Source: Escherichia coli
GTDB lineage: Bacteria > Pseudomonadota > Gammaproteobacteria > Enterobacterales > Enterobacteriaceae
Assembly: GCF_009931435.1 (NCBI RefSeq)
Contig: NZ_CP043414.1
Strand: one strand, 5' to 3'
DNA length: 64,000 bases
Shown piece after piece: positions 1,936 to 60,722 of the stretch. The notes beneath the pieces were generated by a model. That model did not search any database. It was not told where the DNA came from and saw only the letters and a program-made list of their open reading frames with translations. Every line of letters starts with the position of its first letter. The first letter of the stretch is position 1. A program made the position numbers and the translations under genes.

Positions 1936-2272
1936 TTCTCTCTCTTTCCGCGGGCTGGTGACAACTGAGCCCGCGTTTCATATCGTAATTTCTCTGTGCA
2001 AAAATTATCCTTCCCGGGTTCGGAGAATTCCCCCCAAAATATTCGTCGTAGCCATATGTCATGAGAGTTTATCGTTTTTAAGATACCCGAACGAACGTTC
2101 GATTGCTTATTTTATGGCTTCTGTCAACGCTGTTTTAAAGATTAATGCGATCTATATCACGCTGTGGGTATTGCAGTTTTTGGTTTTTTGATCGCGGTGT
2201 CAGTTCTTTTTATTTCCATTTCTCTTCCATGGGTTTCTCACAGATAACTGTGTGCAACACAGAATTGGTTAA

Positions 2273-5505
<3,233 letters not shown>

Positions 5506-56333: not shown

Positions 56334-56358
56334 AACCCGCTTCGGCGGGTTTATTTTA
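56334..56358 (+). terminator. intrinsic terminator of hok mRNA
   Basis: AACCCGC-TTCG-GCGGGTT hairpin followed by TATTTTAT. Confidence 0.7.
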
Positions 56359-56723
56359 TCTGTAAATATTTTTATAAAAATAATGCCCACACACAGCATA
56401 AAACAAAAAGTATCACAGATAAAAAAGGAGCGTAATGTGCAGATTTGTTGTTTTCCATATTTACTCACTTTAACATAATCAATATTGATATGGTTGTTGT
56501 TTCGGTGGTTTCAAACGAGATGTTATGGTGATCTGGTAAAATTGCATAACATTAAAATTTAATTTATCTAATCGCTTTTAATAATAAGCGTTGTGTTTAT
56601 CCCAATAATCTGTTGTTTGACTTTTATTCCATTAATGTAGGGGCTTTACACTGGAACCAGTTTATTTATACTTTATACGCCAGCCTGAACAACTGGCACC
56701 TGCTGCGCCAGCAGAGACAACCG

Positions 56724-58066: not shown

Positions 58067-58819
58067 ATGAACCTTGAAGCCTTACCAAAATATTACTCCC
58101 CAAAATCTCCAAAATTGAGCGATGACGCTCCAGCGACAGGCACCGGTTGTTTAACAATTACGGATGTAATGGCAGCGCAGGGGATGGTGCAGTCGAAAGC
58201 ACCACTTGGGTTGGCCTTATTTCTGGCAAAAGTTGGTGTTCAGGACCCTCAGTTTGCGATTGAAGGCCTGCTAAATTACGCGATGGCACTGGATAACCCG
58301 ACATTGAACAAATTGAGTGAAGAAATCCGGTTACAGATTATTCCTTACCTCGTGAGTTTTGCCTTTGCTGATTACTCCAGGTCTGCGGCAAGTAAGGCTC
58401 GCTGTGAGCATTGTTCAGGTACGGGATTTTATAATGTATTGCGCGAAGTGGTGAAACACTACAGACGCGGGGAATCTGTAATCAAGGAAGAATGGGTGAA
58501 GGAACTATGTCAGCATTGCCATGGTAAGGGCGAAGCCAGCACAGCGTGCAGAGGGTGTAAGGGTAAAGGGATTGTTCTGGATGAAAAAAGAACCCGGTTT
58601 CATGGCGTACCGGTATATAAGATTTGTGGGCGTTGTAATGGAAACCGGTTTAGTCGTTTACCGACCACGCTGGCACGACGTCATGTCCAGAAGCTGGTAC
58701 CAGACCTGACCGATTATCAGTGGTATAAGGGGTATGCGGACGTCATTGGTAAACTGGTAACAAAGTGCTGGCAGGAAGAAGCATACGCGGAAGCGCAATT
58801 GAGGAAGGTGACGAGATAA
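58067..58819 (+). CDS. quuQ: late-gene antiterminator Q-like protein
   Basis: ORF 58037..58819; start at MNLEALPKYY (250 aa); four CxxC zinc-finger repeats. Confidence 0.85.
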   Translation: MNLEALPKYYSPKSPKLSDDAPATGTGCLTITDVMAAQGMVQSKAPLGLALFLAKVGVQDPQFAIEGLLNYAMALDNPTLNKLSEEIRLQIIPYLVSFAFADYSRSAASKARCEHCSGTGFYNVLREVVKHYRRGESVIKEEWVKELCQHCHGKGEASTACRGCKGKGIVLDEKRTRFHGVPVYKICGRCNGNRFSRLPTTLARRHVQKLVPDLTDYQWYKGYADVIGKLVTKCWQEEAYAEAQLRKVTR

Positions 58820-58850
58820 ATGATTTTTGCTGAAGATGGCGACATGATGT

Positions 58851-58879
58851 TTGCATTTTTCAAAAAATATGGATAAAAT
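58851..58879 (+). promoter_or_regulatory. candidate late promoter (pR'-like)
   Basis: TTGCAT-17 bp-TAAAAT, about 30 bp after Q stop and 50 bp before a strong terminator. Confidence 0.35.
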
Positions 58880-58926
58880 TTTTTCAACGATGGGCTTTGT
58901 ATACCCGACGTTAAGAAAAAGTAGAA

Positions 58927-58955
58927 AACCCGCTGATGAGCGGGTTTTGTGCTTT
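58927..58955 (+). terminator. intrinsic terminator after Q (tR'-like)
   Basis: AACCCGCT-GATG-AGCGGGTT stem followed by TTGTGCTTT. Confidence 0.7.
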
Positions 58956-59240: not shown

Positions 59241-59453
59241 TCATGAAAGGTAAACATTGGCAGCTGAAGGGCCACGCAGACCATTTATCCGGCAAAATTC
59301 CACGCGTAATCCGGTGGTAATTTCTTCTGCATCGCGGAGATTGAGCGCTGAAACATGAAGCTGGACATCGATACGACCATCGGATGGGGTGATAAGACCC
59401 TTGCCGCTTTTGCCGTCAAAGGTTTTGACAATTCCTGTCATTTTACGGGACAA
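59241..59453 (-). CDS. cspF: cold-shock-domain protein CspF-like
   Basis: 70-aa CSD ORF divergent from cspB. Confidence 0.85.
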
Positions 59454-59753
59454 AAAAATTCCTTAATACTGATAACTTGGCGCACTATACACACGTTCCT
59501 GAAGAAAGCTATAGTTTTTTGATGGGGTTGAAGATGGCTGGATGTCTAAAATAAACATTGCTTCATATGTTCAACTATGCGTTAATGATTGCGTCGGTTT
59601 GAAGAACAGACGATATACGAAGTAGTTTACTAAAGCAGTTCTCATTTCAGGTGTTATTCACTTATTCCTTCTTTGAGTCTCTCCAATTAAGTACGAAGTC
59701 GTTTCTGTTATGCAAACCATTTATGCCGAAAGGCTCAAGTTAAGGAATGTAGA

Positions 59754-59969
59754 ATGTCAAATAAAATGACTGGTTTAGTAAAATGGTTTAACGCTGATAA
59801 AGGTTTCGGCTTTATTTCTCCTGTTGATGGTAGTAAAGATGTGTTTGTGCATTTTTCTGCGATTCAGAATGATAATTATCGAACCTTATTTGAAGGTCAA
59901 AAGGTTACCTTCTCTATAGAGAGTGGTGCTAAAGGTCCTGCAGCAGCAAATGTCATCATTACTGATTAA
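59754..59969 (+). CDS. cspB: cold-shock protein CspB
   Basis: 71-aa ORF with RNP1-like KGFGFI motif; about 300-nt upstream leader typical of cold-shock genes. Confidence 0.9.
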
Positions 59970-60250
59970 AATTCATCGCTCGTCTGTATACGATAACGAA
60001 GAAGGCTGATGCCTGAGTAGAGATACGGACAGAGTAGTGAATATTGGATTTCTTTAATAAAAATTAAGGAGGTCCAATACATGAAACAATGGCCAGCATA
60101 TTTGGCAAAATCTTAATCAGGAAAAGTATGCTAACCATTGTGGTGAAGTGCAGGTTTGCTGCATGAATAGTTTTACAGCAGAAGCTAACTGCTGGCATGG
60201 CAAAACAAAGTGCGTAAGTGGATGACTCCCACAAAAAGCACCACAATCTC

Positions 60251-60275
60251 AAACCCGCTCAGGCGGGTTTTTTAT
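60251..60275 (+). terminator. intrinsic terminator
   Basis: AAACCCGC-TCAG-GCGGGTTT hairpin followed by T4. Confidence 0.7.
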
Positions 60276-60332
60276 TATCTGCTTTAAATATATTATTAAA
60301 ATATAAAAAATACTTGTTACTAATAAAATCAA

Positions 60333-60503
60333 TCAGGCTACAGCTTTAAGATTTGTCTGGAATACTTTGTTGCAATGAGGGCAGATCAAAAGGGCACCTT
60401 TTTGTACTCTTGAAAAACTGTGTTCTGACTCTTGGGTGCAGTTTGGGCAGGAACATTTAACGAGATAATTACGGCGTGATTTTGAGTCTTTACGTTCTGA
60501 CAT
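60333..60503 (-). CDS. ydfK: YdfK/YnaE-like zinc-ribbon protein
   Basis: ORF 60333..60554; start at MSERKDSKSRRNY (56 aa) with AGGAAA RBS; CSCPNC...CPHC. Confidence 0.6.
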   Translation of the reverse strand: MSERKDSKSRRNYLVKCSCPNCTQESEHSFSRVQKGALLICPHCNKVFQTNLKAVA

Positions 60504-60722
60504 AGGCTTTTCCTGTATAAATGGCCGTATACAGTACACTAAATATGAAAACATTTCTCGTATTATTATTTTATATATGACTTTCTTTCAAAATAATTAC
60601 TCACATTTTTAATGTGTATGTTTCTTTAGCGCCGTTGAGAACAGCGTGTGCTGTCAAAACTACCCCGTAGACTCCGATCTTTTCAAACATATTGCACCAT
60701 CCGTGTACATCGGGGTGAGGAT

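Follow-up and report, generated by a model that had tools for sequence, protein, structure and literature searches.

A structured RNA domain of about 160 nt follows the cold-shock gene cspB in a Qin-type lambdoid prophage of Escherichia coli and, on comparative sequence evidence, is a candidate new RNA family travelling with mobile cold-shock (csp) genes of the Enterobacteriaceae. We are highly confident that the fold seen conserved in the alignments, and its association with csp genes, are real. Taken together, the results are probably best explained by a conserved structured domain, located at the 3′ end of mRNAs from mobile cold-shock genes, that would act in cis on their stability or regulation; the role considered by itself, cis control of mRNA stability or expression, is proposed tentatively. 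This covariation-supported fold is carried by the K-12 Qin prophage and by functional phages, and we found no Rfam family, annotation or literature for it. Cold-shock mRNAs serve as a model for regulated decay and temperature sensing, with attention so far directed at their 5′ untranslated regions (UTRs), and a conserved 3′ domain on mobile csp genes would, if true, open a way to study the tuning of a host stress-response protein by phages and plasmids.

A preliminary description of the window (the whole 64,000-nt stretch of DNA that was analysed) had drawn attention to this site because of a consensus Shine-Dalgarno (SD) sequence, an 11-codon mini-ORF and a terminator, which were read as a small protein, a leader peptide or a short regulatory transcript. 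The last of these suggestions survives in part, in that the region is a conserved RNA; the small-protein and leader-peptide alternatives found no support.

A conserved RNA domain behind cold-shock genes

The last 9 kb of the window form the late region of the prophage, which is 98.5% identical to K-12 Qin and lies in reverse orientation. Genes run in the order ydfU, the Q-like antiterminator gene ydfT/quuQ (ending at 58819), ynfS (−), cspF (−) and cspB (+), followed by the mini-ORF and RNA segment in an unannotated gap and then by ynfU (−), the holin gene essQ (60723), ydfR, rrrQ, rzpQ and cspI (Table 1). Positions 59700–60700 recur at 100% identity in many E. coli chromosomes, and the 366-nt segment after cspB is at least 94.8% identical in the functional phages Tritos, 2H10, PhiR42_1 and HannyBb. 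On the minus strand of K-12, the mini-ORF starts at 1641227 and the RNA domain occupies about 1641058–1641223; the MG1655 RefSeq record carries no annotation at this site, while the neighbours YnfU, YnfS, YnfQ and YnfR are annotated there. The covariance model built for the domain (R1) detected no second copy in the window and none after cspI.

Table 1 Positions of genes, signals and RNA elements around the cspB–ynfU interval
Feature	Position in window	Strand	Basis or remark
cspA-type 5′ UTR before cspB	59593-59985		Rfam RF01766, 158.8 bits, E = 5.9e-43
cspB, cold-shock protein gene	59754..59969	+	ORF list; RefSeq annotation of identical sequence
Module A, hairpin directly after csp stop (tentative)	59984..60035	+	alignments; RNAalifold
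Shine-Dalgarno TAAGGAGGT	60065-60073	+	perfect 9-nt complement of 16S rRNA 3′ end
Mini-ORF, 11 codons and stop, MKQWPAYLAKS	60081-60116	+	ATG AAA CAA TGG CCA GCA TAT TTG GCA AAA TCT TAA
Conserved structured RNA domain (model R1), ~160-165 nt	60085..60250	+	covariance model, 154.5 bits, E = 2.9e-35
Optional P1 extension	ACAAU 60086-60090 with AUUGU 60137-60141	+	
P1, long hairpin	60091-60104 with 60124-60136	+	
Closing helix Pc	AUUGUGGUG 60137-60145 with CACCACAAU 60240-60248	+	
P2	60148-60153 with 60159-60164	+	
P3	60177-60181 with 60189-60193	+	invariant loop AAGCUAA
Invariant single strand AAAGUGCGUAAG, 12-mer	60206-60217	+	
P4	60217-60221 with 60228-60232	+	
Intrinsic terminator AAACCCGC-UCAG-GCGGGUUU then UUUUUU	60251..60276	+	
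ynfU, convergent zinc-knuckle small protein gene	60333..60503	-	RefSeq annotation

The fold was obtained with RNAalifold from a MAFFT alignment of 16 representatives and was not fitted to any prior model. It comprises five helices (P1, Pc, P2, P3 and P4) with 34 pairs, 11 of which are kept through double changes; in the predicted arrangement, P1 stands beside a four-way junction in which Pc encloses P2, P3 and P4. At these pairs, 97.8% of the cells are paired, compared with 91.3% after shuffling, and every one of the five helices is at least 95% paired. The covariation score is 0.261, compared with 0.141 for shuffled alignments (0 of 500 shuffles reach the observed value) and 0.04–0.10 for register-shifted controls, so that compensatory changes exceed both kinds of control. 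That the fold belongs to the csp-sense strand follows from conserved G·U pairs, such as one in P1 that reads UG in 15 of 16 sequences. A specific partner is suggested by the single-stranded 12-mer and the P3 loop, both invariant, although their invariance is partly due to ascertainment because the patterns used for collection required both sequences. The independent lineages behind these comparisons number only about seven.

Protein coding on either strand does not explain the conservation. Every frame on both strands is interrupted in some lineage, and insertions or deletions of 1 and 2 nt fall inside the RNA core. A protein-coding remnant was accordingly rejected for both strands, given the stop codons and frame-breaking indels in other lineages. 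This includes a 62-aa ORF antisense to the RNA domain (60064–60252, −), which is open in the Qin lineage, appears as a hypothetical protein in phage PhiR42_1 and is probably a spurious gene call.

A second hairpin, module A, is a tentative addition to the conserved structure. It combines conserved internal-loop sequences (ACGAAGA ... CCUGAGUAGA) with a variable and apparently covarying outer stem, and it is found in the Qin and Cyrano lineages and in those that we label L025, L092, L080 and L081, but is absent in the PHB10 type. RNAalifold on seven sequences gave 15 pairs, 10 of them with double changes, with a weak folding term. The internal-loop sequences resemble a loop-E or sarcin-ricin motif. 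Sequestration of the SD by AUCUC (60246–60250), as drawn in a single-sequence minimum-energy fold, was considered and rejected, the partner not being conserved even in phage 2H10.

The distribution of the domain follows that of csp genes. A sensitive search with the segment after cspB returned ~80% relatives of its 3′ part in phage PHB10 and the phage-plasmid Cyrano. Each of the two lies behind a csp gene and contains a strongly conserved block of ~140 nt, with no SD or mini-ORF. A further search, seeded on the two invariant stretches, collected at least 120 IMG/VR contigs that reduced to 46 distinct versions, all 46 of them on the csp strand and at a short, constant spacing from the preceding csp stop codon. 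Applied to one genome per species, a relaxed pattern gave 18 loci, of which 16 were confirmed by the covariance model (in Enterobacter, Kluyvera, Kosakonia, Phytobacter, Superficieibacter, Escherichia sp. and MAGs) and two were chance matches. Across all 62 distinct copies, the RNA lies on the same strand as csp and the model starts 70–114 nt 3′ of the csp stop codon. Carriers range over E. coli phages, phage-plasmids, Enterobacter, Kluyvera, Kosakonia and Phytobacter, and the RNA-linked csp genes fall into at least seven lineages with only about 60% protein identity. An RF01766 5′ UTR lies upstream of every csp copy tested, which indicates that these genes are of the cold-inducible type.

Genes resembling cspF and ynfU often flank the csp–RNA unit (the YnfU homologue of PHB10 is 61% identical, E = 2e-25) and are absent in the phage-plasmid lineages. 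Because these neighbours are dispensable, the invariant link is that between csp and the RNA. Genes downstream of the RNA differ between lineages, the neighbour in Cyrano being a convergent dnaE.

Several features of the wider neighbourhood were recorded alongside. A cassette made up of cspF-like (−), csp (+), RNA and ynfU-like zinc-knuckle (−) parts occupies 59241–60503 of the window and 1684–2808 of PHB10 (L004), and the PHB10-type cassette sits between an integrase with an SOS-response peptidase and umuC. Since the four parts are common to Qin-type lambdoid phages and to the unrelated PHB10-type elements, the cassette appears to move as a unit. PHB10 also has an above-threshold match to the Rfam sRNA STnc100 (RF02076) at 3788–3989 (+), about 1.2 kb downstream of the csp cassette (52.7 bits; gathering score, 47). 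In phage Cyrano (L003, OV696614), an intact csp gene at 2130–2345 (+) is unannotated in the phage record; it has an RF01766 5′ UTR (187.6 bits) and the 3′ RNA domain, and it fills an 850-nt ‘empty’ gap between hicB and dnaE.

Place in the transcript and possible roles

A strong terminator had been described about 135 nt downstream of the mini-ORF, and this was borne out, as it starts 135 nt past the stop codon. Its stem (60251–60270) has 8 bp, including five GC pairs, and is followed by TTTTTTATTA, the T-run extending to 60276. The Qin, Cyrano, L025 and L092 lineages all keep the terminator, and its loops covary among them. Copies of the PHB10 type have no GC-rich hairpin; a U-run comes immediately after Pc instead, so that their transcript would end right at the domain. 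In the Qin lineage, the terminator follows the domain within ~5 nt. Between the cspB stop codon and 60251 we found no other terminator, and on the + strand from 59970 to 60250 no promoter-like site, which makes a 3′ UTR of ~300 nt the simplest reading. On this reading, cspB and the RNA domain would be co-transcribed, the terminator at 60251, the first after cspB, would form the 3′ end of the cspB transcript and positions 60081–60275 would be the distal half of its 3′ UTR. Position and strand relative to csp are constant in 62 of 62 copies.

In the reading that we favour, the folded module at the 3′ terminus would act in cis and set the lifetime or expression of the mRNA, possibly by blocking 3′-to-5′ exonucleases or by recruiting an RNA-binding protein. 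PNPase is said to degrade csp mRNAs selectively after cold acclimation, and binding of ProQ at the 3′ end of cspE mRNA reportedly protects it from RNase II. It counts against the simplest form of this reading that a five-helix domain of ~160 nt is more elaborate than an exonuclease stop alone needs. In the Qin lineage, the mini-ORF frame runs straight through the 5′ arm of P1, and its translation would melt that helix.

Published transcript ends bear on when the domain might be made. Within the part of the Term-seq tables of Adams et al. 2021 that was available to us, the only 3′ ends given for cspB, which are strong ones, lie at 1641634 (5′ UTR) and 1641537 (early ORF), the latter in a table that is presumably the Rho-dependent (bicyclomycin) set, and nothing is given near 16410xx. 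As far as these entries go, 3′ ends confined to the 5′ UTR and early ORF suggest that the 3′ UTR may be barely transcribed at 37 °C. If cspB transcription does end prematurely at that temperature, as these ends imply, most transcription of the 3′ domain may take place after cold shock.

Small RNAs derived from 3′ UTRs are common in enterobacteria, and a trans-acting sRNA, either cleaved from the cspB 3′ UTR or separately transcribed, is an unlikely alternative that nevertheless accounts for several features. AAAGUGCGUAAG and/or the P3 loop AAGCUAA would then be the site for a target or protein, and the terminator would be an Hfq or ProQ module. The intrinsic terminator with its U-tail, the invariant unpaired stretches flanked by covarying helices and the movement of the element among unrelated contexts (the lambdoid late region, the integrase–umuC interval of PHB10 and the phage-plasmid Cyrano) would all suit such a molecule. 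However, no promoter-like site was found on the + strand between 59970 and 60250, the PHB10 type is without a GC-rich terminator hairpin and the element never occurs without a csp gene 70–114 nt upstream. At ~160 nt with five helices, the element also does not look like a typical Hfq sRNA; the search patterns account in part for the invariance of its putative seed, and no complementary site was found in the element's own csp mRNA.

The domain can also be drawn in two conformations. The segment AUUGU pairs either with the ACAAU that lengthens P1 or with a second ACAAU (60244–60248) that completes Pc, and each of these pairings covaries and is 91% paired. The predicted energy difference between the conformers ranges from −5 to +6 kcal/mol by lineage, and the favoured conformer differs accordingly. 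It is conceivable, but we think rather unlikely, that the domain is a new family of structured regulatory RNA on mobile Enterobacteriaceae csp genes that works as a conformational switch sensing a protein, a ligand or temperature, with the mini-ORF recruited to flip it. The sensed cue would in that case set the fate of the csp mRNA, and ribosome traffic through the P1 arm, starting from the Qin-lineage mini-ORF, would flip the switch.

Two more specific schemes were tried and rejected. A thermometer-like shift between the two alternative helices failed because the energy difference is unchanged between 37 °C and 15 °C. Pairing of the 12-mer or the P3 loop with the same csp mRNA (5′ UTR to 3′ UTR) gave duplex energies equal to those of shuffled controls, at inconsistent positions.

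The mini-ORF and the late-transcription context

The 11-codon frame is present as first described, and it is laid over the RNA domain. The SD is located in the linker that separates the structured domain from module A, codons 2–7 (AAA CAA UGG CCA GCA UAU) supply the 5′ strand of P1 and of its extension, and codons 8–11 fall within the variable apical part of P1. A spacer of 8 nt had been reported, which holds only when counting from AAGGAGG; from the full 9-mer it is 7 nt (CCAATAC). An A/U-rich upstream tract and AAA as the second codon add to the appearance of a good initiation region. The earlier view that such signals are unlikely by chance depends on how the site is defined: base composition predicts 0.03 occurrences per window of the full 9-mer with an ATG, whereas AAGGAGG with an ATG 4–10 nt downstream is expected about 0.66–0.69 times per 64-kb window, counting both strands. 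The window holds a single TAAGGAGGT, and the same site is the sole AGGAGG followed by ATG. The initiation signal thus beats chance somewhat, not overwhelmingly.

A similar frame noted elsewhere in the window was also recovered, with AAGGAG at 56425 and an ATG at 56435 opening 12 codons (MCRFVVFHIYSL; 56425–56473, +). Its spacer is only 4 nt, which makes it the weaker candidate. It lies ~170 nt after hokD, within a 354-nt segment (56353–56706) for which K-12 Qin has no counterpart, the rem region being there instead.

Conservation of the frame in related prophages had been proposed as a check, and the outcome was negative. The SD and frame are restricted to the CspB/Qin lineage, a group of copies at least ~95% identical to each other. 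All diverged lineages that keep the downstream RNA lack both, namely the Cyrano, L025/L030, L092, L080, L081 and PHB10-type lineages, and so do the 16 species genomes. Escherichia sp. E1V33, a close relative whose CspB is near-identical and whose terminator is the same, has lost the SD, the mini-ORF and P1 entirely. Within the Qin lineage we compared 137 copies (16 haplotypes). The start, stop and length of the mini-ORF are kept in 137 of 137, but all five distinct substitutions in the frame are non-synonymous (P5L, A9V, K10I, S11T and S11P) and none is synonymous, a small number that amounts to absence of support for selection on the peptide and not to proof of neutrality. There is accordingly no excess of synonymous changes of the kind expected for a small-protein gene. 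Two further substitutions weaken the SD, which reads AAGGCGG or AAGGAGA in some haplotypes. Per 100 nt, substitutions number 13.9 in the mini-ORF and 13.4 in the unstructured upstream UTR, whereas the RNA core has 7.5 and the terminator 3.6. The K-12 change from CCA to CTA (‘P5L’) turns a C·A mismatch in P1 into a U-A pair.

From these comparisons, the SD and 11-codon frame are best described as a Qin-lineage-specific addition in the linker that overlays P1. The peptide is most likely neither under selection nor the functional product. Whenever the mRNA is made, ribosomes may well translate the mini-ORF, and its translation could matter in the Qin lineage because the initiation signals are better than chance readily gives (0.03 per window). 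A textbook-looking SD and mini-ORF would thus be a young, unconstrained feature, and a gene call here would add a false small protein.

That the mini-ORF encodes a functional 11-residue peptide, or a leader peptide controlling terminator read-through toward the lysis genes, is therefore improbable. The near-ideal initiation context, rarer than expected by chance, and the intact frame in all Qin-lineage copies speak for it, as does the overlap with P1, through which ribosomes would remodel the RNA; there is also a resemblance to the Rfam family Trp_leader, which is sub-threshold (21.7 bits versus a gathering score of 41) and comes mainly from the terminator. Set against this are the absence of frame and SD in all diverged lineages, their deletion in E1V33, the exclusively non-synonymous changes and the eroding SD, and the frame is also unannotated in MG1655 RefSeq, despite several surveys for small proteins. 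For a leader in particular, 135 nt and an independently folding junction separate the stop codon from the terminator, and no anti-terminator pairing is evident: Pc (to 60248) and the terminator (from 60251) do not overlap, and the AUUGU alternatives leave the 60251–60270 stem out, so that mutually exclusive terminator and anti-terminator helices of the trp type are lacking. Nor is there a regulated gene immediately downstream on the same strand, as the next one, essQ, is 450 nt away and ynfU is convergent; with downstream neighbours also differing between lineages, an attenuator is unlikely. Late transcription at essQ is moreover expected to be Q-antiterminated from a PR′-like promoter just after Q.

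The region just after Q has features of its own. A promoter-like site, TTTGCA-18-TAAAAT (58850–58879, +), follows the Q-like antiterminator gene directly, and downstream of it lies the hairpin AAAACCCGCTGATGAGCGGGTTTT (58925–58948) with a T-rich tail, whose stem is similar to that of the 60251 terminator. From its sequence, the interval 58850–58955 (+) is a plausible PR′–tR′ late-leader module for a short RNA of ~65 nt. One phage record has an annotated 51-aa ORF in this interval.

It is extremely unlikely that the segment after cspB is itself the late-promoter leader, a PR′-to-tR′ ‘6S-like’ transcript whose terminator is a tR′ read by Q-modified polymerase: it does lie between the Q gene and the holin gene, late transcription must pass the 60251 terminator and the terminator–holin distance (~450 nt) is similar to that in lambda, but the site at 58850–58879 with its hairpin and T-run is the better PR′–tR′ candidate, which argues against the 60251 terminator being the late tR′, no promoter-like site precedes the element and the RNA also follows csp genes far from Q and lysis modules (PHB10, Cyrano and Enterobacter chromosomes).

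Comparison with known systems

No Rfam 15 family reached its gathering threshold on 60000–60300 or on the PHB10, Cyrano and Kluyvera homologues, with matches inspected up to E values of 1–10. Sub-threshold matches to Trp_leader, isrK, P9 and AaHKsRNA82 were set aside as driven by the terminator. Our literature search found no paper on an RNA in the cspB 3′ UTR, on the csp cassette or on the mini-ORF peptide.

Five known systems offer points of likeness. Like the leaders of the lambda 6S RNA, StxS and Gifsy-1 IsrK type, the element is a short RNA region that ends in a terminator and lies between Q and the lysis genes of a lambdoid prophage; unlike them, it is not promoter-proximal to Q and is tied to csp rather than to the late operon, and the isrK resemblance is sub-threshold (18.3 versus 50) and comes from the terminator only. 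The trpL and pheL attenuators (Trp_leader, RF00513) likewise have a short ORF with a strong SD upstream of a structure and terminator, and in the element, too, the mini-ORF overlaps one helix arm. In contrast to these attenuators, it has no regulatory codons, no alternative to the terminator stem, no downstream operon and an unconserved ORF, and its Trp_leader score of 21.7 is far below the threshold of 41.

Like the sRNAs derived from 3′ UTRs, such as CpxQ, SroC, DapZ and SdhX, the element combines a location at an mRNA end, a shared terminator and conserved unpaired stretches; it is much larger and more structured than these, and one of its lineages is without a canonical terminator hairpin. 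With the cspA thermoregulator (RF01766) it shares being a structured, conserved RNA of the same mRNA class. However, RF01766 covers the 5′ UTR and coding region, and its match here ends at 59985, before the element, which folds differently, belongs to the 3′ region and gives no match to the RF01766 model; energy calculations gave no temperature-dependent shift between its alternative helices.

A further parallel, drawn by description only, is the reportedly ProQ-bound 3′ end of cspE, which is likewise a structured element at the 3′ end of an mRNA of the cold-shock family and for which the same role is proposed as here, protection from 3′ exonucleases and control of mRNA lifetime. Whereas the cspE element is essentially a terminator hairpin, the element described here would add to the mRNA end a covarying multi-helix domain of ~160 nt, and it is found only on mobile csp genes.
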